From: Enterobacteria phage vB_EcoM_IME281
Strand: one strand, 5' to 3'
DNA length: 64,000 nt
Sequence record: MH051913
In this document: positions 18,848 through 63,412 of the stretch, in pieces
Position numbering within the stretch: the first letter of the stretch is position 1
Layout: every line of letters begins with the position of its first letter
Translations under genes and position numbers: made by a program
The notes under the pieces: model-generated
The model's input: only the letters and a program-made list of their open reading frames with translations
The model's database searches: none
What the model was told of the DNA's origin: nothing

Positions 18848-19063
18848 ATGGAAATCTTAGGTTTTATTCTCCTTTACTTTGTGCTAGGATTTATGACGAC
18901 CTTTATCATTCATAAATCAGGTGATTGGAATCCAATCGAAATTGAATCAAGCTATGATGCAGTATTCATTACACTAGTATGGCCCCTACTTTGGGTTGTT
19001 TTGGTCATTATGATGGTGTTTTGGCCTATTGCTAAATTCTATGAAAAATTATTTGGACTTTAA
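18848..19063 (+). CDS. hypothetical membrane protein
   Basis: 71 aa, two hydrophobic segments. Confidence 0.5.
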   Translation: MEILGFILLYFVLGFMTTFIIHKSGDWNPIEIESSYDAVFITLVWPLLWVVLVIMMVFWPIAKFYEKLFGL

Positions 19064-19064
19064 T

Positions 19065-19946
19065 ATGAACATTAAAACACGTAAAGAATACTCTATATAC
19101 GACCATGACACTACTCGTCGTATCGCTATTGACCGGTTAGCAGACTTTGGTTATATTTGTAATGGTAATTATACTTATGGCGTAGGACGTAAAGGAACTT
19201 ATATCGGTTCTTTGAACGATTATTGCCGTTGCCCAGCCCACCTGTTTGGTGCAACATTGCGGGCTAATATCAAAGACCTCTTGGCTACCGCAGGACGTAT
19301 TTCTACGGTTCCTGTTAATATCAAAAGTATTAATTTTACGGCTCGTAACCTAGTCATTAATATTCTGCCTGATGGTATTCAAGTTCGTTTCCGTCCCACC
19401 TCAAAAGGCAATAAAGCCCTTCGTGAAGCATTCGAAACCTTATTCAGGGAAGCAATGACTCGTATTAAGGCAGTAGAATCATATAAAGTTACAACCGATG
19501 AATATGCCGATTGTTCTGGGCGAGCAGATGCAGTTTATTTTAATGTTAAACTAGCTCGCGAATATCTTTTATCTTATGCCCCTTATCAACCCCAACAAAA
19601 GGACCCACAAATGGAACGTCGTATATCTATCGCTACCTCTACAGTATCATGTGACAGTGTAGGCCAGTATGCAGCCTATGACAAATTCAAAACCACTGCT
19701 GTGCCTAGTCCATTCAATTCCGAACCATATCATTGGAAAATTAAACCTGATAATTCTTTGGTTGTTACTAACCCTACGATGAAACCTATTGAGACCTATT
19801 ATGCAGATAGCATTCAGGAATCAATCCACCGTTTAAATGGTCAGATTGAAGATGAGAAAAAGAGCATTCAAGACGTATTGACCCGCATCAAGAATATGGA
19901 AAACCAGCGTGACAAGCTCAGCGCGGCACTATTAGCTCTAAAATAG
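19065..19946 (+). CDS. hypothetical protein with C-terminal coiled coil
   Basis: 293-aa ORF. Confidence 0.6.
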   Translation: MNIKTRKEYSIYDHDTTRRIAIDRLADFGYICNGNYTYGVGRKGTYIGSLNDYCRCPAHLFGATLRANIKDLLATAGRISTVPVNIKSINFTARNLVINILPDGIQVRFRPTSKGNKALREAFETLFREAMTRIKAVESYKVTTDEYADCSGRADAVYFNVKLAREYLLSYAPYQPQQKDPQMERRISIATSTVSCDSVGQYAAYDKFKTTAVPSPFNSEPYHWKIKPDNSLVVTNPTMKPIETYYADSIQESIHRLNGQIEDEKKSIQDVLTRIKNMENQRDKLSAALLALK

Positions 19947-19947
19947 T

Positions 19948-19977
19948 GTTTACATCCAAGGACGGATGGAGTATAAT
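19948..19977 (+). promoter_or_regulatory. early promoter
   Basis: GTTTAC-N18-TATAAT. Confidence 0.6.
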
Positions 19978-20005
19978 CCTTTTATCAACTACTGAGGAGA
20001 ATATC

Positions 20006-21016
20006 ATGACCCGTACTGAATACATCAATGCCTTTACTAAGTATATCACTGACAATACCCCTCCATTAACACCGTATGAGGTGATAGTTTCTAATATCAA
20101 TAAATGGGTAGACCAAATTGATAAAGCATTATCCAATTGTTTCAAAGATGAAATCGAAAAGATTGCAGGCCGTTTGTTTATTTCTGATATCGTAGATACA
20201 TTTAAAGGTTCTCGACTGCTTTCACGGTTGGTCAATAAGGATATCCTTTCAGAGTTTGGCAAAGAGAAACACCCAGGTTCCAGCCACGTTGTTAGCTACC
20301 AATGGTTTGGTGATGTTTTAAAAAGCTATATCAAAATGAAAGGTACCGACCCTAAGGGCTTATTTCCTTTACGTTGGGCCGGTGAATTTAAGGCTAACTC
20401 CGCATTAATTCTAAAAGCAGCAACCAAAACCTTTGTAAAGGGTGATTGTCGTACTATCCACCCTATGGCTGATGGCATGATTAAAACAAACAACTATAAA
20501 GGGAAGGTGCTTATTTCTATTATTTGGTCGCCTAGTTGGAAACCTAAAGAAGTTGAAGTTTCGAAATACCAAGATATTTCCTACAATACCCTGAATATTG
20601 TAGAACAAGCTTTAGCTTTGATGGATACAGTAGAGAAATATGAGATTCAAGAAATCAACCACCACTTAGGCTGGAAAGGATATGAAGTTTTAGTAACAGT
20701 TCGCGAAATCAAATGCCCTGTTCCAAAAACCGACGCTGAAATTTACCAAGAAAAATGTGAGGAAATTGTGAACACTGATAAAGAGCCTGCAACCTTAGAA
20801 GACTTGATTGATGAGCTGAATGGCCCAAGGCTACTGGCCTGTGCACCAATTACTAAATCCAAGCCGCCAGAAGTAGTTGCTCTGGAAAAAGCATATAAAG
20901 ATGCCCTTGCTATCAACAAAAAACTGACCGGACAATATACTGCTGCCAAGAAACTTTGGGAAGAGTCTACCAATCGTCTGGATAAACTGGAACAAGCCCT
21001 GGAGCTGTTGAAATGA
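20006..21016 (+). CDS. hypothetical protein with C-terminal coiled coil
   Basis: ATG at 20006 after GAGGAG SD and early promoter. Confidence 0.6.
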   Translation: MTRTEYINAFTKYITDNTPPLTPYEVIVSNINKWVDQIDKALSNCFKDEIEKIAGRLFISDIVDTFKGSRLLSRLVNKDILSEFGKEKHPGSSHVVSYQWFGDVLKSYIKMKGTDPKGLFPLRWAGEFKANSALILKAATKTFVKGDCRTIHPMADGMIKTNNYKGKVLISIIWSPSWKPKEVEVSKYQDISYNTLNIVEQALALMDTVEKYEIQEINHHLGWKGYEVLVTVREIKCPVPKTDAEIYQEKCEEIVNTDKEPATLEDLIDELNGPRLLACAPITKSKPPEVVALEKAYKDALAINKKLTGQYTAAKKLWEESTNRLDKLEQALELLK

Positions 21017-35992: not shown

Positions 35993-38704
35993 ATGCAAGA
36001 ATTCTATTTGACAGTCGAACAAATCGGTGATAATATTCTCGAACGTTACATCGATAAAAATGGTAACGAACGTAGTCGTGAAGTTCCTTACAAGCCTACA
36101 ATGTTTATGCATGCTAACCCAGAGCAAGCCGTAAAATATATTGACATCTACGGTAAGGGCTGTGTTAAGAAAGAATTCGATTCAATGCGCGATGCTTCTC
36201 AGTGGATGAAGCGCATGGACGATATGGGTCTCGAAGCCCTTGGTATGGACGACTATAAATTAGCCTATTTGTCTGATACCTATCGTAAAGAAATCAAGTA
36301 TGATTCTTCCAAGATTCGTATTGCTAACTTCGACATCGAGGTAACATCCCCTGATGGATTCCCTGAACCTGCCCAGGCTAAACATCCTATCGATGCCATT
36401 ACTCACTACGACTCGATTGATGATAAATTCTATGTATTTGACCTTTTAGTTTCACCTTACGGTACGGTCGAAGAGTGGTCGATTAAAATCGCTGAGAAAC
36501 TCCAAGACGAAGGTGGTGACGAAGTTCCACAAGAAATCATTGACAAAATCGTTTATCTTCCGTTTAATTCTGAAGAAGAAATGATGCTTGAGTATCTGAA
36601 TTTCTGGCAACAGAAAACTCCTGTGATTTTGACTGGATGGAACGTTGAATCATTTGACGTGCCATACGTTTATAACCGTCTGAAAAATCTGTTTGGTGAG
36701 AACACTGCTAAGCGATTAAGCCCACATCGTAAGACTCGTGTTAAAGTTATCGAGAATATGTACGGTGTTCGCGAAATTATTACACTGTTCGGTATCTCTG
36801 TTCTGGATTATATCGACCTTTATAAAAAATTCAGCTTTACTAACCAGCCTTCTTATTCTCTGGATTATGTTTCTGAATATGAATTGAAAGTAGGTAAGTT
36901 GAAATATGATGGTCCTATCTCCAAGTTACGTGAGACGAACCACCAACGATATATTTCCTATAACATTATCGACGTATATCGTGTTGTGCAGATTGATATG
37001 AAACGCCAGTTCATTCTTCTTAGTCTGGACATGGGTTACTATGCCAAGATGCAGATTCAGTCGGTGTTCAGTCCAATTAAGACTTGGGACGCTATTATCT
37101 TTAATAGCCTTAAAGAACAGGGTAAAGTTATTCCTCAGGCCAAATCGCATGCGGTTCAACCTTATCCAGGTGCTTTCGTTAAGGAACCTATTCCTAACGC
37201 GTACAAATATGTAATGAGTTTCGACCTTACATCTCTGTACCCGAGTATCATTCGACAAGTGAATATAAGCCCAGAGACCATCGCAGGCACATTCGCCAAC
37301 GCACCGATACATGAATATATTGCCGGAACTGCTCCGCGTCCTAGCGACACCTACAGTTGCTCTCCTAACGGCATGATGTACTATAAAGACCGTGACGGTG
37401 TGATTCCTACAGAAATCACGAAGGTGTTCTTACAGCGTAAAGAACATAAAGGTTATATGCTTGCAGCTCAACGTAATGGTGAGTTAATTAAAGAAGCATT
37501 AGAAAATCCTAATCTGTCTGTTGATAGTCCACTGGATATCGATTATCGTTTCGACTTCTCTGACGAAATCAAAGCTCAGATTAAAAAATTGTCAGCATCT
37601 TCTTTAAAAGAAATGTTGTTCAAAGCCGAACGTACTGAAGTCGCAGGTATGACTGCTCAGATTAACCGTAAGTTGCTTATCAACTCCCTTTATGGTGCAC
37701 TTGGTAACGTATGGTTCCGTTACTATGACCTCAGGAACGCAACTGCAATCACATTGTTTGGTCAAATGGCCCTCCAATGGATTGAACGTAAGGTTAACGA
37801 ATATCTGAATGGCGTGTGCAAGACTGAAAACCAGAAGTTCGTGCTCTATGGTGATACTGACTCCATTTATGTTAAGGCTGACGCAATCATCAATAAAGTA
37901 GGCGAAGACAAATTCCGTGATACCAACCATTGGGTAGACTTCTTAGATAAATTTGCACGTGAACGTATGGAACCGGCTATTGATGCAGGCTTCCGTGAGA
38001 TGTGCGAATACATGAACAACAAACAGCACTTGATGTTCATGGACCGAGAAGCTATCGCTGGTCCTCCGCTTGGTTCTAAAGGTCTTGGTGGATTCTGGAC
38101 AGGCAAGAAACGTTATGCACTGAACGTTTGGGACATGGAAGGTACTCGTTATGCCGAACCACACTTGAAAATCATGGGTCTCGAAACTCAGAAATCAAGT
38201 ACGCCTAAAGCGGTTCAGAAAGCACTGAAAGAATGTATCCGTCGTATGCTTCAAGAAGGCGAGGCTTCTTTGCAAGAATATTTCAAACAGTTTAATAAGG
38301 AATTTAACGAATTAGACTATGTAAGCATTGCTGCAGTATCCAGTGCTAACAACATCGAGAAATATAATGAAGGCGGATTCCCTGGTTCTAAATGCCCGTA
38401 CCACATCAAAGGTTGCTTAGCTTACATGCGTGCTTCTGCTGGTGATTTGACTATGCCTCGTATCGTTGATGGTGAAAAGGTATATGTACTGCCACTTAAA
38501 GAAGGCAACCCGTTCGGTGAAGCTTGTATGGCATGGCCGTCAGGTATTGAACTTCCGATTCAGATTCGTGACCAAGTCCTCCGTTGGATGGACTACAACG
38601 TACTGTTCCAAAAGACCTTTATCAAACCTCTGACCGGTTTTACTGAGTCTGCTAAAATCGACTACGAGAAAAAAGCAACATTATTTGACATGTTTGACTT
38701 TTAA
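35993..38704 (+). CDS. 43: DNA polymerase gp43 (family B)
   Basis: Exo motifs FDIEV, YNIIDV; pol motifs SLYPSI, YGDTDS; starts MQEFYLTVEQIG (track start 35933 is upstream in-frame). Confidence 0.97.
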   Translation: MQEFYLTVEQIGDNILERYIDKNGNERSREVPYKPTMFMHANPEQAVKYIDIYGKGCVKKEFDSMRDASQWMKRMDDMGLEALGMDDYKLAYLSDTYRKEIKYDSSKIRIANFDIEVTSPDGFPEPAQAKHPIDAITHYDSIDDKFYVFDLLVSPYGTVEEWSIKIAEKLQDEGGDEVPQEIIDKIVYLPFNSEEEMMLEYLNFWQQKTPVILTGWNVESFDVPYVYNRLKNLFGENTAKRLSPHRKTRVKVIENMYGVREIITLFGISVLDYIDLYKKFSFTNQPSYSLDYVSEYELKVGKLKYDGPISKLRETNHQRYISYNIIDVYRVVQIDMKRQFILLSLDMGYYAKMQIQSVFSPIKTWDAIIFNSLKEQGKVIPQAKSHAVQPYPGAFVKEPIPNAYKYVMSFDLTSLYPSIIRQVNISPETIAGTFANAPIHEYIAGTAPRPSDTYSCSPNGMMYYKDRDGVIPTEITKVFLQRKEHKGYMLAAQRNGELIKEALENPNLSVDSPLDIDYRFDFSDEIKAQIKKLSASSLKEMLFKAERTEVAGMTAQINRKLLINSLYGALGNVWFRYYDLRNATAITLFGQMALQWIERKVNEYLNGVCKTENQKFVLYGDTDSIYVKADAIINKVGEDKFRDTNHWVDFLDKFARERMEPAIDAGFREMCEYMNNKQHLMFMDREAIAGPPLGSKGLGGFWTGKKRYALNVWDMEGTRYAEPHLKIMGLETQKSSTPKAVQKALKECIRRMLQEGEASLQEYFKQFNKEFNELDYVSIAAVSSANNIEKYNEGGFPGSKCPYHIKGCLAYMRASAGDLTMPRIVDGEKVYVLPLKEGNPFGEACMAWPSGIELPIQIRDQVLRWMDYNVLFQKTFIKPLTGFTESAKIDYEKKATLFDMFDF

Positions 38705-38706
38705 GT

Positions 38707-38750
38707 GTTTACATACCACATGGAACGTGGTAGTATCCTTCCTATCAACT
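38707..38750 (+). promoter_or_regulatory. early promoter cassette (PeSL-like) upstream of imm-like gene
   Basis: GTTTAC-N18-TAGTAT then CCTATCAACTACATGAGGAA. Confidence 0.6.
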
Positions 38751-38766
38751 ACATGAGGAAATTATA

Positions 38767-39003
38767 ATGGAAGCTTTAATCGTTAGTGCTGGTGTTTTAG
38801 GATTCGGTTCTCTGGTTATTATGTTCATTGGTTACTTTTTACCATGGATTCTGGCCCTTCTGCGAGGCACTCGTAGCAATGTCGGAATCTTCTTCCTTAA
38901 TCTCCTGTTAGGGTGGACGATGATTGGTTGGGTAGTGGCTTTAATCTGGGCTATCGTCGCTGAACGTAAATCAAACGCACAAATCATTATCGTTAAACAA
39001 TGA
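38767..39003 (+). CDS. superinfection immunity (Imm)-like membrane protein
   Basis: 78 aa, two TM helices, LLGWTMIGWVVALIWA motif; directly downstream of gene 43 as T4 imm. Confidence 0.6.
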   Translation: MEALIVSAGVLGFGSLVIMFIGYFLPWILALLRGTRSNVGIFFLNLLLGWTMIGWVVALIWAIVAERKSNAQIIIVKQ

Positions 39004-39137
39004 AGATAATTATTTTATTTCTTATAATGGCTGCCTTTACCGTTTATTGGGCAGTGGCAATTCCTCCAATGATTCCAACATTAATCATGGGATGGATTAT
39101 TCTTATAGCACAAATTAAGTATAACTGTTTTAATTGA
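39000..39137 (+). CDS. hypothetical small membrane protein
   Basis: 45-codon hydrophobic ORF, ATGA-coupled. Confidence 0.35.
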   Translation: MKIIILFLIMAAFTVYWAVAIPPMIPTLIMGWIILIAQIKYNCFN

Positions 39138-39144
39138 GGATATT

Positions 39145-39645
39145 ATGAAAAAGTTAATTATCGCAATGAGTATGCTCCTATCAGGTTGCGCAGTCCAATA
39201 TGGTGATGCAGTTTCTGCTGATGAAGTTGGTAAAGCTCGTATCGCAGCTGAACAGAAACAATTCGACGGCGAAATGAAATTCCGTGCCGGTTCTGGACTT
39301 GTGTACACCCGAGCTAATAATCAATGTGGTAATAACTGTGCAAAATATGCTCAAAGGGAAATCGAATTCCAACGTGAACAAGAGTCTAAGCGTGAAGCGG
39401 TACTAGCCAAACACCAGGCAGAAATGAAGCGCCAAGATGATTTGTACAAAAAGCAGAAACTGTATGCCATGTGTGTAAACCATATCAATCTACAGATTTC
39501 TGTCCACGAGGCTCGTTATTACGAAATGCTCGAAACCGAGAGCTTCGATAAGGCTCGTGATTATAAGAAACAAATCAACAAGCTTAAGACCAAAGTGCCT
39601 GCTGCAGTAGAACAGTGCATGGAATACGGTAAAGATAAGATTTAA
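39145..39645 (+). CDS. predicted lipoprotein
   Basis: Signal peptide with lipobox LLSGC; 166 aa. Confidence 0.6.
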   Translation: MKKLIIAMSMLLSGCAVQYGDAVSADEVGKARIAAEQKQFDGEMKFRAGSGLVYTRANNQCGNNCAKYAQREIEFQREQESKREAVLAKHQAEMKRQDDLYKKQKLYAMCVNHINLQISVHEARYYEMLETESFDKARDYKKQINKLKTKVPAAVEQCMEYGKDKI

Positions 39646-39706
39646 GCAATAGAAATTTATTAAAAAATAGTGTATAATGTACCTACATTCACTTGAGGAA
39701 CAGATA

Positions 39707-41380
39707 ATGAAAAAGGTTGTTATTTTAGGCGCAGGTCTTGGCTCACGGTTGTATCCAATTACTAACGAAATCCCAAAGGTATTGGTTAACTACAAACAAC
39801 ATACGGTATTAAAACATTTGTATGATTTGTATAGTAACCAATCAGATGAAATTATTCTGGTTATTCACAGCAAATTTAACGACCTCGTTAAAGGCTATAT
39901 TAAATCCATTAACATGATTACTGGTGATAAGCCTAAATTCACTATTCGTAACGTTGATGTTGCTAATGGTTCAGCTCATGCTATCGATTGCATTGCCGAA
40001 GATATCATTGGCCATAATGTCCTGTTTAACTGGTGTGACATCATTCCTATCGGTCATAAAGTTGAATGGGGTAACGACTATTGTTATACCTATGGAACTG
40101 ACTGTCGCTTTACATTTGAAGAACCGTACTTACGTGAAATTGGTACCGGTGGCGGTGTAGTTGGTTTGTATCAGGTAGCCAATTGGACAGGTTTCGACCG
40201 TTCTAATTATGGCGAAGACCTTGCTGATAACCTGGATTCAATGGTCTATTTGACTGAACGTAAACTGGATTTTGTAGTTGATGTCGGTGACAAATTGAAA
40301 CTTGCCAAGGCCCATGAAGATTCTGAAATTAACCGTGAATTTAATAAATTAGAGTTCACCGAGAATCTGGCTATTAAAGTACCAACTAACGAATTAGGTA
40401 AAGAAATTCAATCTAAAGAAATCAATTGGTATAATTCTATTGATTCTGAATTCGTTCCTAGCATTGTAGACTTTTCTCCAGGCGAATTCATTAAAATGGA
40501 ACGTATCTTTGGTCGTACCATGGCAGATGCCTACCGGTTTATGTCCAAAGAAACTAAAGTCCTCATGGTTTATAAGGTCATTAGTGCATTACGTTCATTC
40601 GGTGGAACTATCGATAACCCGTCCGATGAGCAGTGGTATTCCGATGTTAAGAAAGAAGTATTGGACAAGGTCCTTATTCGTAATGCTTCTATTGCCGGAT
40701 TGATTGAAGGCTTTGCTCCACAGGGCATTACCCATGTTAACGATTTCAAAGTAGGCGACCCCGAAAAACTTCTCCGCCATGCACTAGAAATTCTGTCCGA
40801 ACATAAAGAACCGTACCAACTTATTCACGGCGACCCGCACTACAGTAATATTATGTTGTCGGATGAAGGTGATATTAAAATCATCGACCCGCGTGGTTAT
40901 TTTGGTAATAGTTCTAAAGGCCCTGCGATTTATGATGAAGCTAAGGTGCTTTATTCTATCGATGGCTATGACAAATTTAACTCAGACCCTCTATGGGGTG
41001 GATTAACTCGTAACGGAACCCGTGTATTCGTTGATATCGAAAAGGTTATGCCTTTAGACGATATTCCTATGTGCACATTTAAGCACAAGCTCTGGATTGC
41101 TGTTATTTGGATGGCTCTGGCAGGTTACTTTAAGAATAACCCTCTGAAAGCTCTGGGTGCTTATTATAACGGTTTGTATCAACTGAGTGTGCTGCTTAAG
41201 CGGCATCCTCGTAAGCGTAAGCTTATCACAGGTGAATTTGTCGATGAAGTTCGTGACCCTATCACGGCTCAAATTATTACTCGTTGCCCTGATAAGTGGG
41301 TTTTGCTTGACCAGGAAACTGGTGTAAAATATAAACCTACAGGTTCTACTGAACTCCACAAACAATGGAAGAAAATTTAA
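39707..41380 (+). CDS. bifunctional sugar-phosphate nucleotidyltransferase / kinase (NTP-transferase N-domain, APH/ChoK-like kinase C-domain)
   Basis: N-terminal GAGLGSRLYPITNEIPKVLV (G-x-G-x-R-L-x-P-x-T..PK); C-terminal Brenner motif IHGDPHYSN and IIDPRG. Confidence 0.75.
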   Translation: MKKVVILGAGLGSRLYPITNEIPKVLVNYKQHTVLKHLYDLYSNQSDEIILVIHSKFNDLVKGYIKSINMITGDKPKFTIRNVDVANGSAHAIDCIAEDIIGHNVLFNWCDIIPIGHKVEWGNDYCYTYGTDCRFTFEEPYLREIGTGGGVVGLYQVANWTGFDRSNYGEDLADNLDSMVYLTERKLDFVVDVGDKLKLAKAHEDSEINREFNKLEFTENLAIKVPTNELGKEIQSKEINWYNSIDSEFVPSIVDFSPGEFIKMERIFGRTMADAYRFMSKETKVLMVYKVISALRSFGGTIDNPSDEQWYSDVKKEVLDKVLIRNASIAGLIEGFAPQGITHVNDFKVGDPEKLLRHALEILSEHKEPYQLIHGDPHYSNIMLSDEGDIKIIDPRGYFGNSSKGPAIYDEAKVLYSIDGYDKFNSDPLWGGLTRNGTRVFVDIEKVMPLDDIPMCTFKHKLWIAVIWMALAGYFKNNPLKALGAYYNGLYQLSVLLKRHPRKRKLITGEFVDEVRDPITAQIITRCPDKWVLLDQETGVKYKPTGSTELHKQWKKI

Positions 41381-41763
41381 TGTCGCATCGAGTAGAAAAT
41401 AAGCCACATTTATGTTTTGATATCGATAACACAATCACGATTTGGAACCATGACCGTGATTATGAGAACTTTAAACCGGACACCGAAATGGTGTCCATGA
41501 TTAATAAGCTTTATGATGAAGGGTACGAGATTACATTATTCACTGCCCGCGGCATGACTTCATGTGGCCCAGGTCGAATCTTGGTTGAAGTAGTTCCTGC
41601 ATTGGTTAAGAACCTTGAAAAGATTGGATTGAAATATCATAATCTGCTTACGCATAAGCCGAGTTATACTTTTATCATCGATGACCGAGCAATCCGTCCT
41701 GACCACTTTAAAGAAATGGTTCGTGAAGGAACTCTTGATAGTTATAAGGCCTATCATCCATGA
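41380..41763 (+). CDS. HAD-superfamily phosphatase
   Basis: HAD motif I CFDIDNTIT; 127 aa; TAATG coupling to upstream gene. Confidence 0.65.
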   Translation: MSHRVENKPHLCFDIDNTITIWNHDRDYENFKPDTEMVSMINKLYDEGYEITLFTARGMTSCGPGRILVEVVPALVKNLEKIGLKYHNLLTHKPSYTFIIDDRAIRPDHFKEMVREGTLDSYKAYHP

Positions 41764-42296
41764 ATCCAAAAATCATTGTTATAGACGGCCCGGATAATTC
41801 CGGGAAGTCCACTTTAATTAAAAATCTGTTATCCAATAAGAAATACCGCCTTATTGATTTTCCTAAAAAGATTAATGGCAAGTGTATTTCATTAGGAACT
41901 GATAACGATAAGGCTTTAGTTGAAACTCTGTATAAGTTTTTAGACCCTAATTTCGTTTATATCCTTGACCGTGGTTATCCAAGTAATATTGTTTACTCAG
42001 GATTCCTTCGTGGTGAAATGGACCCTTATGTAGAACTGGAAGATTGGAAAGGGTTTAAATCCGAATTTAACGTTATCGAGGTTATTTTAACTCGCAATCC
42101 ATTAGACGAAGACTTCGAAGACGACCTTATTAAATTAACCAAAGATGAGTTCAACCTAACTATCCGGCAATACGAAACATGTTTTGAAAACGTGTTTAAA
42201 ATCTTAAATCATGACGGCCATAATAATTTGCTTAATGTTGATATGGTAGAATTAAAACGTCTGAACGAATATATTGAAAATAAGGTGAATAAATGA
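41760..42296 (+). CDS. P-loop kinase (nucleotide/nucleoside kinase-like)
   Basis: Walker A IDGPDNSGKSTL at N-terminus as in thymidylate/deoxynucleoside kinases. Confidence 0.6.
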   Translation: MNPKIIVIDGPDNSGKSTLIKNLLSNKKYRLIDFPKKINGKCISLGTDNDKALVETLYKFLDPNFVYILDRGYPSNIVYSGFLRGEMDPYVELEDWKGFKSEFNVIEVILTRNPLDEDFEDDLIKLTKDEFNLTIRQYETCFENVFKILNHDGHNNLLNVDMVELKRLNEYIENKVNK

Positions 42297-42991
42297 AACA
42301 CATTACCGCTGTTAGTTTTGAAAATGCATTTAAACAAATGAACGAAGAAATCCTGGAAGCTCCACAGTTTGCAGTTGATTCTCGTATCGGACGTTGTTAT
42401 GAAATTGGTTCTGCTTCGGTAGAAGTACTGGATGCAAGCACCTATAAATTCACCGACCCACGTATCAATCGTATTAGTTATGAATATGCCGAATCCTTTT
42501 GGAAATTTATGATTTCTGGTGGTACTGACGCTGCCGAAGCATTTAAGGAATACCCTAATGTTGCTAAGTTCATTGATAAGCCGAAAAGTGATGTATTGCC
42601 TGCAAACTTCAACACTTTCTATGGACCTCGAATTGTGGCCCAACTCCCAGCCCTACTTAAAGAGCTTAAAGAAAAGGCTAACTCGCGAAGAGTTGTGTTC
42701 CAGATTCTCCAAGAACAAGACCAAGCCCTCCTTGATTCTGACGAATCCTTAGAATATCCTTGCACCGATTCGGTAACGTATTATATTCGTGACGGACGTT
42801 TGTATGCACACACCCATATGCGTTCACAAAACTGCGCCGTTGTTATGCAGCTGGATTTCTATCTGCAGGGTAAACTGATGGCATTTATTGCTGAACAGTG
42901 TGGTGTCGGTTTAGGTACATATTCCCACACCATGGTAAGTGCACACGTGTTTGAACGTGATTTTGACTACGTCCGAGGTTTCCTGAAATGA
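42293..42991 (+). CDS. 42: dCMP hydroxymethylase-like enzyme (thymidylate synthase fold), divergent
   Basis: Catalytic Cys context YPCTDSVTYYIRD and MRS..; Asp in QLDFY at the dCMP-specificity position; position of T4 gene 42. Confidence 0.75.
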   Translation: MKHITAVSFENAFKQMNEEILEAPQFAVDSRIGRCYEIGSASVEVLDASTYKFTDPRINRISYEYAESFWKFMISGGTDAAEAFKEYPNVAKFIDKPKSDVLPANFNTFYGPRIVAQLPALLKELKEKANSRRVVFQILQEQDQALLDSDESLEYPCTDSVTYYIRDGRLYAHTHMRSQNCAVVMQLDFYLQGKLMAFIAEQCGVGLGTYSHTMVSAHVFERDFDYVRGFLK

Positions 42992-43881
42992 GTTTGTTTA
43001 TCGTTCCTATTTTCAGTATGCGTAGTTACGAAACAGGTGAATATGCCGTCCTTAAGGACGGCAATTTTCAACTCCATTTAAATCGTGCTCGTCCAGGTGA
43101 TTATCTGGCTTATCCTAGAAATTCGAGCGATATCAAAGAATGCATTGAATTATTCCCAGAACTGAATTTCGTACCACTTTGGTATAAAGAAAATGCTTAT
43201 GAAACCCGTAAACATTTCTGGTCTGAAAATGAGTTTGTAGTCGATTCACTAATCGAATACTATGATTGCTCAGGACTGGTGACCGATATCACCGGTTATG
43301 ATGGTGCTCATACTGTACAATTCAACTTTAATATCACAATGGACCCTGAAGTTCCTCGTTATTATATCGACGAGTTCATTGATATTGATGTGGCTTCAGT
43401 TGAACGTTCACTTTATACTACAGTCTTGAATCAATGCCAGAAAGACGTCCTGGTGTCACGAGGTGCATCCTCTGATAAGATTTTTGTAGACCAAAAGGTA
43501 ATTAATCCTGCAGTAATTGAGCGTTACTCTGAAGGTCTAGCGCCTATTAAAATTGATGGTATTTTCCATCCATTCCGTATTTCGGATAAGTGTTATCAAT
43601 TCGAAAGAGTTGTAGACCAAGCTGCCGCTGAAGGTGCTCGTCTTTATATCACCGACCCTAATGATTCATTTAAGCGCGAAGACTATCGTCCTGATGTAGA
43701 GATTATTAAATTCAAACCGAGTAAGGTTGAATATTATCAAATTCTGAAATCAAGACCACATATCATTTATCATGAGAACCCAGGTTTAGTATTCCATCCT
43801 GGTCTGGCTGAATTCATTTATTTCGGTGCCAATATTCATTCTGAATACGAAATGCCACGTTATGAGGACGTAGTATGCTAG
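42988..43881 (+). CDS. hypothetical protein (candidate DNA sugar transferase by position)
   Basis: 297-aa ORF where T4 has beta-glucosyltransferase; no motif recognised by eye. Confidence 0.6.
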   Translation: MSLFIVPIFSMRSYETGEYAVLKDGNFQLHLNRARPGDYLAYPRNSSDIKECIELFPELNFVPLWYKENAYETRKHFWSENEFVVDSLIEYYDCSGLVTDITGYDGAHTVQFNFNITMDPEVPRYYIDEFIDIDVASVERSLYTTVLNQCQKDVLVSRGASSDKIFVDQKVINPAVIERYSEGLAPIKIDGIFHPFRISDKCYQFERVVDQAAAEGARLYITDPNDSFKREDYRPDVEIIKFKPSKVEYYQILKSRPHIIYHENPGLVFHPGLAEFIYFGANIHSEYEMPRYEDVVC

Positions 43882-44006
43882 GTCCTCTATTGCTTTTTAT
43901 AGGTTTGGTATTATTCTCTTTCGGAGCCTTGCTATTATTAGTGTGGCTCGAGAAACGAGAAGTTCGGAAGATAGTCGATAAGGCTATCAACCGAGGAATT
44001 AAGTAA
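43875..44006 (+). CDS. hypothetical small membrane protein
   Basis: 43-codon hydrophobic ORF overlapping upstream stop. Confidence 0.35.
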   Translation: MLGPLLLFIGLVLFSFGALLLLVWLEKREVRKIVDKAINRGIK

Positions 44007-44083
44007 TGCTGTAGCTGTGAAGTGATATAATTACCCTATCTTAAAACGTGAGAAAAATATAATGATGCCTATGGAAAAATATA

Positions 44084-45256
44084 ATGTCTGATTTAAAATC
44101 CCGTTTGATTAAAGCTTCTACTTCTAAAATGACTGCCGACCTGACCAAATCTAAATTGTTTAATGGTCGTGACGAAGTTCCTACTCGTATTCCTATGCTT
44201 AATATTGCATTGGGTGGTGCGTTGAATGCAGGCTTACAATCAGGTTTGACAATCTTTGCTGCACCGTCTAAACACTTTAAAACGTTGTTTGGATTAACTA
44301 TGGTTGCGGCATATATGAAGAAATATCCAGACGCAATTTGCTTGTTCTATGACTCTGAGTTCGGTGCTTCAGAATCTTATTTCCGTTCAATGGGTGTTGA
44401 CCTGGAACGTGTAGTTCATACGCCAATCCAGTCAGTCGAACAACTGAAGGTTGACATGACCAACCAATTAGAAGAAATTACTCGTGGTGAAAAGGTTATT
44501 ATCTTTATCGACTCCATCGGTAACACTGCTTCTAAGAAAGAAACCGAAGATGCTTTGAACGAGAAAGTTGTAGGTGATATGACTCGTGCTAAGTCTCTGA
44601 AATCTCTGTTCCGTATCGTAACACCTTATCTGACTATCAAGGATATTCCTTGCGTAGCAATTAACCATACGGCTATGGAAATTGGTGGAATGTATCCTAA
44701 AGAGATTATGGGTGGCGGTACTGGTATTCTGTACTCTGCTTCTACCGTATTCTTTATCTCTAAACGTCAGGTTAAAGATGGTACCGAGCTCACTGGTTAT
44801 GACTTCACCCTGAAGGCCGAAAAATCTCGTACTGTTAAAGAGAAATCAACGTTCCCAATTACTGTGAACTTTGAAGGCGGTATCGACCCGTTTAGTGGTC
44901 TGCTCGAAATGGCTACTGATATCGGTTTTGTCGTGAAACCTAAAGCCGGTTGGTATAATCGTGCATTCCTTGACGAAACCACGGGTGAAATGGTTCAAGA
45001 AGAAAAAGCATGGCGTGCTAAAGCTACCGATTGCGTTGAGTTCTGGGGACCGCTGTTTAAACATGCTCCGTTCCGTGAAGCAATCGAGAATAAGTATAAG
45101 CTCGGTGCAATTAATTCTATTAAAGAAGTTGACGATGCAGTGAACGACCTTATTAACTCTCGTGTCTCTAAGAACGTTGCTGTTAAATTAGGTGGAAATA
45201 CCCAAAGCGCCGCTGATATCGAAAACGATTTAGAAGAGATGGATTTAGATGACTGA
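44084..45256 (+). CDS. uvsX: RecA-like recombinase UvsX
   Basis: 390 aa collinear with T4 UvsX (MSDLKSRLIKASTSK...LFYDSEFG...KETEDALNEKVV.DMTRAKS.KSLFRIVTPY). Confidence 0.95.
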   Translation: MSDLKSRLIKASTSKMTADLTKSKLFNGRDEVPTRIPMLNIALGGALNAGLQSGLTIFAAPSKHFKTLFGLTMVAAYMKKYPDAICLFYDSEFGASESYFRSMGVDLERVVHTPIQSVEQLKVDMTNQLEEITRGEKVIIFIDSIGNTASKKETEDALNEKVVGDMTRAKSLKSLFRIVTPYLTIKDIPCVAINHTAMEIGGMYPKEIMGGGTGILYSASTVFFISKRQVKDGTELTGYDFTLKAEKSRTVKEKSTFPITVNFEGGIDPFSGLLEMATDIGFVVKPKAGWYNRAFLDETTGEMVQEEKAWRAKATDCVEFWGPLFKHAPFREAIENKYKLGAINSIKEVDDAVNDLINSRVSKNVAVKLGGNTQSAADIENDLEEMDLDD

Positions 45257-50661: not shown

Positions 50662-50755
50662 GTTATCCTCCTGTTAAATTAATATTTATTCGCTTTAATC
50701 TAGCAGTTTATAATTATCTAACTTACTAACAAATGAATTGATAAGGAAAAATATA

Positions 50756-51277
50756 ATGGCTCATTTTAATGAATGTTCTCAACTGATTGCCGGTGCCGAT
50801 AAAGCTGAAGAAGCTTATTTTAATGCTCTGATTCACGAAGATAAAGACCCTCTGCAGGTTATGCTTGATATGCAGAAATCTTTGCAGGTTCGTTTAGCTA
50901 AAGATAAGCCTGAATATAATCGTCATCCTGATGATTTGGCCACTGCGGGTGAAGTTGTCGATTGGCTTCGCAACCAGAAAGATTATATTGATGACGAATT
51001 CCGTGAACTTATGACTTCTCTTGGTGGTATGAGCAATGGTGAAAAAGATGCATCTGCAGTATGGAAGCCTTGGAAAGCTCAACATGCTGAACGTCGTGAA
51101 ACCCTGATTAACGATTTGTCTCCTGAAGACCAGCTCGAAATTAAATTCGAAATGATTGATATTCTGCACTTTGTTCTGAATATGTTCCAGGGTCTTGGAC
51201 TGACCGCTGAAGAAATCTTTAAACTGTATTACCTGAAAAATGCCGAGAACTTTGCTCGTCAAGACCGAGGTTATTAA
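50756..51277 (+). CDS. 56: dCTP pyrophosphatase gp56
   Basis: 173 aa collinear with T4 gp56 (MAHFNEC...DPLQVMLDMQ...EIFKLYYLKN.ENFARQDRGY). Confidence 0.93.
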   Translation: MAHFNECSQLIAGADKAEEAYFNALIHEDKDPLQVMLDMQKSLQVRLAKDKPEYNRHPDDLATAGEVVDWLRNQKDYIDDEFRELMTSLGGMSNGEKDASAVWKPWKAQHAERRETLINDLSPEDQLEIKFEMIDILHFVLNMFQGLGLTAEEIFKLYYLKNAENFARQDRGY

Positions 51278-60921: not shown

Positions 60922-61599
60922 ATGTTTATAGTTTACTTGACGATTTATTCCGGAGACAAATTACCTCCATTTTATATAGGTTCGACTAGCCTAGAAAAAC
61001 ATTTAAACGGATACCACGGCTCCGTAAAATCTAAAAAGTACCAAGAGATTTACAAGTCTGAATTGGCTGCCCATCCTGAGCTTTTCGATAGTTTGATAGT
61101 TGAAGAATTCGAGACAAGAGAAGAAGCTACTAAAGCGGAGTATAAGTATCAAGTCCTTAATAATGCGGCTAAATCTGATTTATTTTTTAATAGAGCAACT
61201 GCAGCACCTAAAGGATTTTTCGGCTCCGACGTTAGTAAAGAAAACAATCCTTTCTTTAACAAACATCATTCTCATGAAACTATAAAAATCCAATCAGGCC
61301 TTAAATTAGGTGAACTTAACCCTATGTATGGGATTAAACGCCCTGAACATTCCAAAGCAATGGCTAAAGAAAACAACCCTTTCTTTGGTAAGAAACATAC
61401 AGACGAGGCCTTAATCAAATGCGGTCTTAAAAATCGTAAAAGCCCTGTTTGGGAATATGAATCCGCTTTAGAAGATTTATGGTTAGAATTAGATAAACCT
61501 AAACTGGCTAAATTCATGAAAGAAAGTATTAAACGTGGATTTCCTGAAGGGTCCTATAAAAATATTTTAAAACAATTCGAGAGAAAACATAATGATTGA
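60922..61599 (+). CDS. GIY-YIG homing endonuclease (Seg-like) with NUMOD3-type repeats
   Basis: GIY-YIG core VYLTIYSGDKLPPFYIGST; three NP[FM][FY]GK repeats. Confidence 0.85.
   Translation: MFIVYLTIYSGDKLPPFYIGSTSLEKHLNGYHGSVKSKKYQEIYKSELAAHPELFDSLIVEEFETREEATKAEYKYQVLNNAAKSDLFFNRATAAPKGFFGSDVSKENNPFFNKHHSHETIKIQSGLKLGELNPMYGIKRPEHSKAMAKENNPFFGKKHTDEALIKCGLKNRKSPVWEYESALEDLWLELDKPKLAKFMKESIKRGFPEGSYKNILKQFERKHND
60922..61599 (+). mobile_element. free-standing GIY-YIG homing endonuclease gene abutting gene 39
   Basis: Own early promoter; 3' end overlaps start of topoisomerase gene by 8 nt. Confidence 0.65.
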
Positions 61600-63412
61600 T
61601 AATAAAATTGAAATGCTTTCAGATAAGGAACACGTTCTTAAGCGTCCTGGAATGTACATCGGAAGTGTATCATTTGAAGACCATGAACGATTTCTTTTCG
61701 GCGAGTTTACCAAAGTACGGTATGTAGCGGGTGTTCTTAAATTAGTTGATGAAATCATCGATAACTCAGTTGATGAAGCTATTCGTACTAATTTTAAGTT
61801 TGCCAACAAAATTTCAGTAAGCATTGATTTAAGTTCTAATAAGGTTACTGTAGAAGATAATGGCCGTGGTATTCCTCAAGCTCTAGTGGTTACTCCTGAA
61901 GGTGAAGAAATCCCAGGACCCGTCGCGGCTTGGACAAAAACCAAGGCAGGCGGTAACTTTGGTGATGACTCTGAACGTGTTACCGGTGGTCAAAACGGTG
62001 TCGGTTCCAGTTTAACAAATATATTCTCTGTGATGTTTACAGGCACAACTTCTGATGGTAAATCTGAACTTATTGTTAACTGCTCTAATAACGCTGAAAA
62101 CGTTTCTTGGAAATCAAAGCCATCTAAAACTAATGGAACCAAAGTAGAATTTGTACCTGATTTTAGCCACTTTGAAATGAACCAATTTGAAAAAATTTAT
62201 CAAGATATTACCATTGACCGACTTCAAACCTTAGCAGTCATTTATCCTGATATTGAATTTAAATTTAATGGTAAGAAAATCCAAGGGTCGTTTAAAAAAT
62301 ACGCCAAACAGTTCGACGAAGAGTGCATTATCCAAGAACAGGACAATTGTTCGATATCTATAGGACGCTCTCCTGATGGATTCCGACAATTAACGTACGT
62401 GAACAATATTCATACTAAAAACGGTGGTCACCACGTTGAATGTGTTATGGATGATATTTGTGACGAGCTTATCCCACAAATTAAGCGTAAGTTTAAAATT
62501 GAAGTAACCAAAGCCCGTATTAAAGAATGTTTAACGATGCTGATGTTTGTGCGAAGCATGAAAAATATGCGATTCGATTCCCAGACTAAAGAACGTCTAA
62601 CATCGCCGTATGGTGAAATTCGTTCGCATATTCAGTTAGATTCTAAAAAACTAGCTAAATCCATATTAGCTAATGAAGCTGTGTTGATGCCTATTATTGA
62701 GGCTGCATTAGCACGTAAGCTCGCTGCTGAAAAGGCTGCCGAAACAAAAGCTGCTAAGAAAGCTTTGAAAGCCAAGGTCCATAAGCATATTAAAGCCAAT
62801 ATGTATGGCAAAGATGCTGATACGACTTTATTCCTTACGGAAGGTGATTCTGCAATGGGTCCTTTCATTGAAGTTCGTAATAAAGACCTCCAAGGTGGTT
62901 ATCCGTTACGCGGAAAGGTTATGAATACCTGGGGTATGACTGCTGCCGATATCATGAAGAACAAAGAATTGTTTGATATCTGTGCAATCACTGGACTGGT
63001 TATTGGTGAACCTGCAGATAAAACCAACTATCGTAATATCGCTATCATGACTGACGCCGATGTGGATGGTACTGGTTCGATTTATCCTTCGTTATTAGCT
63101 TTCTTTAGTCAGTGGCCGGAATTGTTTGAACAGGGACGAATTCGTTTCTGTAAGACTCCTGTAATCATTGCTCAGGTTGGTAAAGAACAGGAATGGTTCT
63201 ATGATGTACCTAGTTATACCAAAGCTAAGGACTCTCTACCTAAGCATTCTATTCGTTATATTAAAGGACTCGGTTCTCTTGAGAAGGCTGAATACCGTCG
63301 AATGATTCAAGACCCTAAATTCGATGTAGTTCAATTACCTGAAGATTGGAAAGACCAGTTCGAAATGCTCCTTGGAAACGACCCACAGCTGCGTAAGGCT
63401 TGGATGTCATAA
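61592..63412 (+). CDS. 39: DNA topoisomerase II large subunit (gp39 fused with gp60 region; GyrB-like ATPase + TOPRIM)
   Basis: GHKL ATPase motifs (EDNGRGIP, GGQNGVGSS), TOPRIM EGDSA; 606 aa continuous ORF. Confidence 0.93.
   Translation: MIDNKIEMLSDKEHVLKRPGMYIGSVSFEDHERFLFGEFTKVRYVAGVLKLVDEIIDNSVDEAIRTNFKFANKISVSIDLSSNKVTVEDNGRGIPQALVVTPEGEEIPGPVAAWTKTKAGGNFGDDSERVTGGQNGVGSSLTNIFSVMFTGTTSDGKSELIVNCSNNAENVSWKSKPSKTNGTKVEFVPDFSHFEMNQFEKIYQDITIDRLQTLAVIYPDIEFKFNGKKIQGSFKKYAKQFDEECIIQEQDNCSISIGRSPDGFRQLTYVNNIHTKNGGHHVECVMDDICDELIPQIKRKFKIEVTKARIKECLTMLMFVRSMKNMRFDSQTKERLTSPYGEIRSHIQLDSKKLAKSILANEAVLMPIIEAALARKLAAEKAAETKAAKKALKAKVHKHIKANMYGKDADTTLFLTEGDSAMGPFIEVRNKDLQGGYPLRGKVMNTWGMTAADIMKNKELFDICAITGLVIGEPADKTNYRNIAIMTDADVDGTGSIYPSLLAFFSQWPELFEQGRIRFCKTPVIIAQVGKEQEWFYDVPSYTKAKDSLPKHSIRYIKGLGSLEKAEYRRMIQDPKFDVVQLPEDWKDQFEMLLGNDPQLRKAWMS

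Follow-up and report, generated by a model that had tools for sequence, protein, structure and literature searches.

The gene that occupies the gene-42 slot of this phage very probably encodes a flavin-dependent dCMP C5-hydroxylase with a thymidylate synthase (TS) fold, i.e., a 5-hydroxy-dCMP (5hodCMP) synthase of the AfhB type. This assignment, made from the protein sequence, departs from the preliminary description of the locus, in which the protein was taken for a divergent dCMP hydroxymethylase; the presence of Asn at the position of Asp169 in E. coli ThyA (D169N), together with 80% identity to characterized enzymes, places it in the dCMP 5-hydroxylase branch. The features of the hydroxylase family that were found are: identity to verified homologues; the D169N substitution; the trio of the Cys, the Asp and an acidic side chain where ThyA has L143; the TS fold; and a genomic context comprising the cassette together with a dCTPase and a dNMP kinase. 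By analogy with its homologues, the protein would convert dCMP to 5hodCMP with the help of a bound flavin and with O2 as the oxygen source.

The window (the whole stretch of 64,000 nucleotides that was analysed) is from a JS98-like coliphage of the T4 type (genus Dhakavirus). Over the region 38700-44100 it shares 99.6% identity with Escherichia phage UP19 and 98.2% with JS98, and the hydroxylase protein is 100% identical to JS98 orf39. The gene runs on the + strand from an ATG at 42293 to a TGA at 42989-42991 and falls in the interval from gene 43 (DNA polymerase) to uvsX, which in T4 holds imm, gene 42 and beta-gt. Its translation contains both YPCTDSVTYYIRD and HMRSQNCAVVMQLDFY, in agreement with the letters quoted earlier, and matches Pfam PF00303 (thymidylate synthase) with E=3.6e-13. 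The gene overlaps with the kinase gene upstream of it and with the gene for a 297-aa protein downstream of it, in each case through a stop and a start codon that share the letters ATGA. Because of these overlaps at both ends, the genes form a tightly (translationally) coupled operon. When the region 38600-44200 was scanned for promoters and terminators, the counts were no higher than in shuffled sequences. The imm gene, downstream of gene 43, forms the left border of the cassette (Table 1).

Table 1. Features of the window discussed in the text; functions are predicted.
Feature	Position	Strand	Remarks
imm, superinfection immunity protein	38767..39003	+	Pfam PF14373 (E=5e-18); JS98 annotation
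AfhE-like bifunctional sugar-activating enzyme	39677..41380	+	N-terminal nucleotidyltransferase, C-terminal APH-type kinase
HAD-type sugar phosphatase, AfhF-like	41365..41763	+	61% identity to RB69 gp51; PHROG 1238
TMPK-like nucleotide kinase	41760..42296	+	PHROG 761 thymidylate kinase (E=1.5e-39)
5hodCMP synthase (AfhB-like, TS fold)	42293..42991	+	232 aa
Putative first DNA arabinosyltransferase (ara-GT 1)	42988..43881	+	297 aa; PHROG 3891
gp56 dCTPase/dUTPase	50738..51277	+	Pfam dUTPase_2; position matches JS98 gene 56

The neighbouring genes resemble those of the arabinosylation pathway of RB69 and HY126. The AfhE-like protein is 41-45% identical to RB69 gp53 and gp52, matches PHROG 4098 with E=5e-268, and carries Pfam domains NTP_transferase (residues 13-110) and APH (residues 356-427); translation probably begins at the ATG near 39707 (MKKVVILGAG...). 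It is predicted to act as an Ara5P 1-kinase and UDP-arabinofuranose pyrophosphorylase. For the AfhF-like protein, which matches the NCBIfam capsule-biosynthesis phosphatase model TIGR01689 with E=1e-14, a value below the curated cutoff, the predicted reaction is the conversion of Ara-1,5-bisphosphate to Ara-1-P. In HY126, AfhE and AfhF together convert arabinose-5-phosphate to UDP-arabinofuranose (summarised in PMC13326640). The TMPK-like kinase has a P-loop (GPDNSGKST) in its translation and shares 38% identity with RB69 gp45. The 297-aa protein, which gave no Pfam match, is 70% identical to RB69 gp47 and 65% identical to gp46; in the RB69 sequence, an error of sequencing has divided a single gene into gp46 and gp47, and the product of this gene has been proposed to be the first DNA arabinosyltransferase (PMC13326640). 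JS98 also encodes the gp1 dNMP kinase, td, frd, cd, alc, denA and denB. Outside the cassette, gp56 supplies dCMP and clears dCTP from the pool.

In a BLASTP comparison with T4 gp42, the hydroxylase protein showed 25% identity over 159 aa, and the alignment ran from the Cys motif through MRS...D without gaps. The alignment of the catalytic core noted earlier was thus reproduced, with an ungapped core in which C157 and D188 pair with C148 and D179 of T4. The core proteins of the window are far closer to their T4 counterparts (gp43, 61%; UvsX, 67%; gp41, 65%), so that the excess divergence of this protein from T4, also noted earlier, is real. High identity to RB69 gp42 had been named as an observation that would undo this divergence estimate. 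RB69 has no T4-type gp42, and its counterpart is ORF048c/gp48, to which the protein from the window is about 80% (79-80%) identical over 231 aa without gaps. The identities between the window and RB69 are 79% for this enzyme, 84% for gp43, 90% for UvsX and 68% for gp41. The divergence from T4 therefore stands, while the idea of an unusually divergent gene does not hold within its own phage group, given the 80% identity to RB69 gp48. The distance from T4 does not come from rapid evolution of a gene-42 orthologue. The low identity and the placement in a separate clade (see below) argue against orthology to T4 gp42, and in a sequence search of the PDB, T4 gp42 (E=1.5e-4) was a weaker match than many TSs or MilA, a CMP 5-hydroxymethylase (E=4e-13).

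The closest matches in the PDB were 9IQU, 9IQC and 9IR2 (E=2e-125), with 185 of 231 residues (80%) identical to 9IQU, the AfhB of phage HY126. A structure of the protein predicted by AF2 (pLDDT 87, pTM 0.85) gave 9IQC (TM 0.96, rmsd 1.5) and 9IQU as the top Foldseek matches, consistent with a shared fold. The entry titles read 'phage HY126 dCMP hydroxylase-AfhB with substrate dCMP' and 'Monooxygenase dependent on riboflavin with dCMP and FAD'; these entries were released on 2025-07-16, and the homologue crystal contains dCMP and FAD. The HY126 AfhB structures (9IQC, 9IQU, 9IR2) are reportedly from work by He et al. that appeared in Nat Chem Biol in 2026. Conversion of dCMP to 5-hydroxy-dCMP has been described for RB69 gp48 and for Acinetobacter phage DLP3 gp80 (Lee et al., NAR 2026, PMC13326640). 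Expression of RB69 gp48 in E. coli gave 5hodC, with 18O taken from 18O2, and the preparations of gp48 and DLP3 gp80 were yellow owing to a loosely bound flavin, FMN in the case of gp48 (PMC13326640). Flavin binding and O2-dependent formation of 5-hydroxy-dCMP have thus been demonstrated for RB69 gp48, DLP3 gp80 and HY126 AfhB (PMC13326640). In addition, RB69 DNA carries arabinose that is ether-linked to 5-hydroxycytosine, and not to hydroxymethylcytosine as reported in 2018 (PMC13326640).

Both in pairwise and in multiple alignments, C157 of the query protein aligns with T4 C148 and ThyA C146, and D188 (in QLDF) aligns with T4 D179 (in RNDY) and E. coli ThyA N177. The further correspondences (ThyA residues in brackets) are Glu154 (L143), Arg177-Ser178 (R166-S167), Asn180 (D169), Val184 (G173) and His218 (H207), and Trp80 and Trp83 of ThyA are replaced by Ala91 and Ile94. 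With the query and E. coli ThyA 17% identical, their MAFFT alignment is unreliable in its N-terminal part, around R21 and E58, and that part was given no weight. The presence of Asp at the position equivalent to T4 Asp179 and ThyA Asn177, which the preliminary description had noted, was borne out, as a proper alignment showed no Asn there. Because Asp occupies this position, dCMP is the expected substrate; the earlier prediction of dCMP rather than dUMP agrees with the substrate of the 80%-identical homologues, known both from experiment and from the crystal.

A protein acting on dUMP, be it an additional thymidylate synthase or a hydroxymethylase or hydroxylase of dUMP, would fit the Pfam and PHROG matches to the TS family and the RefSeq product name 'thymidylate synthase'. 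Such an activity is exceedingly improbable in view of the following: the N177 position holds Asp instead of Asn in all of the homologues examined (120/120); the NCBIfam TS equivalog models gave scores of 20-62 bits against cutoffs of 108-427; genuine td and frd genes are found elsewhere in JS98; and the crystal of the 80%-identical homologue holds dCMP. The protein also carries D188 and N180 and lacks the C-terminal folate-closing tail, at variance with ThyA and Td.

The catalytic Cys and the Asp179 equivalent are common to the gp42 and hydroxylase families and therefore do not discriminate between them. A highly diverged orthologue of the T4-type dCMP hydroxymethylase, which makes 5hm-dCMP from CH2-THF and water, is another candidate. 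This reading draws on the TS fold, the catalytic Cys, the Asp at N177 and the acidic residue at the L143 position, all as in T4 gp42, on the location of the ORF in the gene-42 slot, and on several GenBank records labelled dCMP hydroxymethylase. It is nevertheless very unlikely. Identity to T4 gp42 is only 25%, against 80% for two enzymes that were demonstrated to hydroxylate rather than to hydroxymethylate, and the sequence of the protein is nearer to that of MilA than to that of T4 gp42. The folate-binding Asp169 is replaced by Asn180, within the motif MRSQN, whereas T4 gp42 keeps Asp171 at this position, and Trp80 and Trp83 are lost. Furthermore, the RB69 DNA modification, formerly given as arabinosyl-hmC, has been re-determined as arabinosyl-5-hydroxy-C.

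The absence of glucosyltransferases for hmC also speaks against a hydroxymethylase. When the window and 168.7 of the 170.5 kb of JS98 were searched by tblastn with T4 and PG7 beta-gt and PG7 beta-alpha-gt, no glucosyltransferase homologue was found. Over the same sequences, T4 gp42 detected this ORF only, PG7 gp42 detected it and td, and no second TS-like modification enzyme was found; the alpha-gt slot of JS98, from gene 47 to gene 55, is empty. The tblastn results and the empty slot thus leave this ORF as the only candidate for a cytosine-C5 modifying enzyme in the phage.

Asn at the position of ThyA Asp169 has been proposed to be diagnostic of 5-hydroxylases (Lee et al., PMC13326640). Residues E154, C157, N180 and D188 are invariant in 120 of the 120 homologues examined (49-99% identity), in which Gly173 is replaced by Val, and Trp80 and Trp83 by small or aliphatic residues. 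In an alignment of 14 sequences, Asn (MRSQN) is present in the query and in the proteins of RB69, Serratia 92A1, Shewanella Thanatos-2 and Acinetobacter Acj61, and also in one metagenomic relative and the Rhizobium/Agrobacterium Pootjesviridae enzymes. Asp is kept in E. coli ThyA, T4 gp42, Karamvirus PG7 gp42, whose gene adjoins a beta-gt (beta-glucosyltransferase) gene, and three other phage TS-like enzymes, two of them recorded as hydroxymethylases (pyrimidine or dCMP) and the third as a thymidylate synthase; the motif is MRSND in all of these phage proteins. A phylogeny of TS-fold enzymes, which the preliminary description had put forward as a check, did not favour a gp42-type enzyme: in a neighbour-joining tree, the query groups with the D169N enzymes (72% bootstrap), and T4 and PG7 gp42 form a clade of their own (100%). 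Deep nodes of this tree have bootstrap values of 1-22%, too low to order the branches of Bacteroides, Maribacter, the siphovirus and T4.

For the dCMP 5-hydroxylase, the following course of the reaction may be envisaged. Arg132/Arg133, Arg177 and Ser178 would hold the phosphate of dCMP, and Asp188 would read the N3/N4 face of the cytosine, so that dCMP rather than dUMP would be the substrate. Addition of the Cys to C6 is a step of all TS-family enzymes; here Cys157 would add to C6, rendering C5 nucleophilic. C5 would then attack an O2-derived oxygen on a loosely bound reduced flavin (FMN/FAD), in place of the methylene of CH2-THF, and elimination of Cys157 would release 5-hydroxy-dCMP. The flavin would occupy the folate site of TS, where the residues in contact with folate, Asp169, Gly173, Trp80 and Trp83, have become Asn180, Val184, Ala91 and Ile94. 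From TS chemistry we infer how the electrons would move and what each residue would do. Subsequently, 5hodCMP would be phosphorylated by the gp1 dNMP kinase and the host NDK, and the polymerase would incorporate the modified nucleotide in place of dCTP, which gp56 would destroy. The 5-OH group would finally be arabinosylated by the 297-aa glycosyltransferase (GT) from UDP-arabinofuranose, the donor being provided by the AfhE-like and AfhF-like enzymes.

The divergence of the gene had been explained earlier in two ways, i.e., by its arrival with the adjacent cassette through horizontal transfer, or by altered specificity. The second suggestion pointed in the right direction, although the substrate is dCMP as had been predicted, and it is the chemistry that differs, hydroxylation instead of hydroxymethylation. 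As to the first, no sign of a recent transfer was seen. The GC content is 0.36-0.42 across the cassette vs 0.36-0.43 in the flanks, and identity to RB69 is like that of the core proteins; on these two observations, recent horizontal transfer of the cassette was rejected. In addition, the hydroxylase family is widespread, occurring in many genera of Straboviridae with hosts in Escherichia, Klebsiella, Enterobacter, Serratia, Yersinia, Edwardsiella, Acinetobacter and Shewanella. We regard the hydroxylase as an old alternative to gene 42 in this slot, not orthologous to it and inherited together with the arabinosylation genes; an ancient swap of one TS-family enzyme for another at this locus, in either direction, is likely. 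Dhakavirus was not mentioned when the BASEL phages, reportedly used by Mahler et al. in a 2025 study in Cell Host Microbe, were checked for a member of this genus; Bas47 (AlbertHofmann) is a Mosigvirus-type relative with 80% identity to the query.

The Dhakavirus cluster is a reduced version of that of RB69 and HY126, and for this reason the final DNA modification may differ even with a dCMP 5-hydroxylase in place, being, for example, strictly mono-arabinosyl-5-hydroxycytosine or built from another pentose donor. We consider the chances of such a difference to be about even. Consistent with it, homologues of RB69 gp55 (arabinose-5-P isomerase), gp50 and gp3 (second ara-GT) were missing from the window and from 168.7 of the 170.5 kb of JS98, and the sugar-activating enzyme has only the 41-45% identity to that of RB69 given above. 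A precedent is Thanatos, a phage of Shewanella with only one syntenic ara-GT and with mono-arabinosylated DNA (PMC13326640). On the other hand, the question concerns downstream steps only and does not affect the identity of the hydroxylase. Moreover, E. coli makes Ara5P via KdsD/GutQ (KDO pathway), and since the host can supply this compound, the sugar could stay the same without a phage isomerase. By analogy with Thanatos, we predict that Dhakavirus DNA contains mono-arabinosyl-5-hydroxycytosine, with Ara5P from the host KDO pathway. A broader proposal, to which we give slightly less than an even chance, is that of a naturally minimal pathway consisting of the hydroxylase, the AfhE-like enzyme, the phosphatase, the kinase and a single GT, without a phage arabinose-5-P isomerase, which may depend wholly on host KdsD/GutQ and would then yield strictly mono-arabinosyl-5hoC or another sugar in this genus. 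If this is true, the minimal pathway possibly has a defence-evasion profile unlike that of the Mosigviruses.

Work published in 2025-2026 already covers this enzyme family, the reaction, one crystal structure and the residue that is diagnostic, and Lee et al. name Dhakaviruses among the carriers of the syntenic cluster (PMC13326640); the finding is therefore already known. Its main use is the correction of annotations, as GenBank and RefSeq label the gene mostly as 'thymidylate synthase' or 'dCMP hydroxymethylase', and no model in NCBIfam release 20 captures the hydroxylase. What looked like a divergent orthologue represents a different enzyme chemistry on the same fold, and a single residue, Asn vs Asp at ThyA position 169, separates 5-hydroxy-C from 5-hydroxymethyl-C phages. 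The current labels mispredict the DNA chemistry of Dhakavirus candidates for phage therapy, which bears on restriction and type IV sensitivity, on cutting or sequencing with standard enzymes, and on the CRISPR engineering of these phages.

Among known systems, HY126 AfhB and RB69 gp48 are the closest to the query. They share with it 80% identity over the full length without gaps, the E/C/N/D signature, the slot between gene 43 and uvsX, and the neighbours ara-GT 1, TMPK-like kinase, AfhF-like phosphatase and AfhE-like bifunctional enzyme, and they are of similar length (234-238 aa vs 232 aa). They differ in that: HY126 and RB69 belong to the genus Mosigvirus, whereas the query is from a Dhakavirus; the kinase gene lies upstream of the hydroxylase gene in Dhakavirus but downstream of the GT in RB69 and HY126; and the Dhakavirus cluster, unlike theirs, has no arabinose-5-P isomerase, gp49/gp50 or second arabinosyltransferase.

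T4 gp42 (PDB 1B5E/1B5D/1B49) is like the query in its TS fold, the covalent Cys (C148/C157), the cytosine-specifying Asp (D179/D188), the acidic residue at the position of ThyA L143 (D145/E154), the absence of the TS C-terminal tail, and its genome position. However, it keeps the folate residues Asp171 (ThyA D169) and Trp82 (ThyA W80), where the query has Asn180 and Ala91, and it uses CH2-THF to make 5hm-dCMP, while the family of the query uses flavin and O2 to make 5ho-dCMP. The best non-phage match is the Streptomyces enzyme MilA (5JNH, 5B6D; TM 0.86). Like the query, MilA acts on a cytosine nucleotide, and it has Asp at both the N177 and the L143 positions. It is, however, a folate-dependent hydroxymethylase that prefers the ribonucleotide, it is only 24-25% identical to the query, and it has Asp at position 169 (MRAND) and about 90 extra C-terminal residues. 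Finally, the 5hodCMP synthases of Pootjesviridae (RL38J1 gp216 type; P9VFCI, Atu_ph04), of which the Rhizobium phage RL38J1 enzyme makes 5hodC (PMC13326640), fall into the same group of the tree as the query at about 29-34% identity and share with it MRSQN, EYPC, LPxNFxxFYGPRI and the Asp at N177; they are found in a context of hexose (galactose/glucose) glycosylation, whereas the context of the query is that of arabinose.

Identical or near-identical copies of the hydroxylase gene, which is assigned as a 5hodCMP synthase, carry varying labels in the databases ("thymidylate synthase", "dCMP hydroxymethylase", "deoxycytidylate 5-hydroxymethyltransferase" or "hypothetical protein"), and the protein reached no NCBIfam model at or above that model's own cutoff. 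The 5hodCMP synthase family is systematically mis-annotated in public records. Among the proteins of the surrounding arabinosylation cassette, the TMPK-like kinase shows just 38% identity to its counterpart in the Mosigvirus RB69, far below the values for the hydroxylase (79%), the putative arabinosyltransferase (GT; 65-70%) and the phosphatase (61%).

The longest ORF of the sugar-activation gene begins at the ATG at 39677 (N-terminus MYLHSLEEQIMKKVV). In JS98 (Dhakavirus) the gene is annotated from approximately 10 codons further on, at MKKVVILGAG, which is also where the matches to PHROG and Pfam begin; the internal ATG near 39707 is probably the true start. Between this gene and the superinfection immunity gene imm lies the PHROG 1754 ORF, while RB69 has its arabinose-5-phosphate isomerase in that place. 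The N-terminus of this ORF, MKKLIIAMSMLLSGC, resembles a lipoprotein signal peptide with a lipobox, and its product is possibly an envelope or superinfection-exclusion protein.

Features discussed in the text
Feature	Coordinates	Strand	Length (aa)	Basis or location
DUF7235 / PHROG 2351 ORF	19029-19946	+	305	nrdC.4-nrdC.6 region
PHROG 1435 ORF	19946-21016	+	356	nrdC.4-nrdC.6 region, adjoins preceding ORF
PHROG 1754 ORF	39145-39645	+	166	PHROG match
Sugar-activation gene	39677-41380	+		longest ORF
TMPK-like kinase	41760-42296	+		
Hydroxylase	42293-42991	+	232	
seg-like homing endonuclease ORF	60922-61599	+	225	GIY-YIG + NUMOD3 motifs
Gene 39	61592-63412			

The two ORFs of the nrdC.4-nrdC.6 region were checked as candidates for additional glycosyltransferases, and nothing in favour was found. 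Directly upstream of gene 39, with a small overlap, is the seg-like ORF; as JS98 lacks a gene at the matching site, this ORF appears to be a mobile insertion specific to the strain.

No homologues of RB69 gp55 (arabinose-5-phosphate isomerase), gp49/gp50 or gp3 (second arabinosyltransferase) were present in window positions 38700-44100 or JS98 loci L003, L011, L012 and L014, where the Dhakavirus arabinosylation cluster has a single GT. These absences, together with the lone GT, lead us to predict that the Dhakavirus pathway relies on host arabinose-5-phosphate, and that Dhakavirus DNA would be mono-arabinosylated. Compared with that of RB69, the Dhakavirus cluster is a reduced version.
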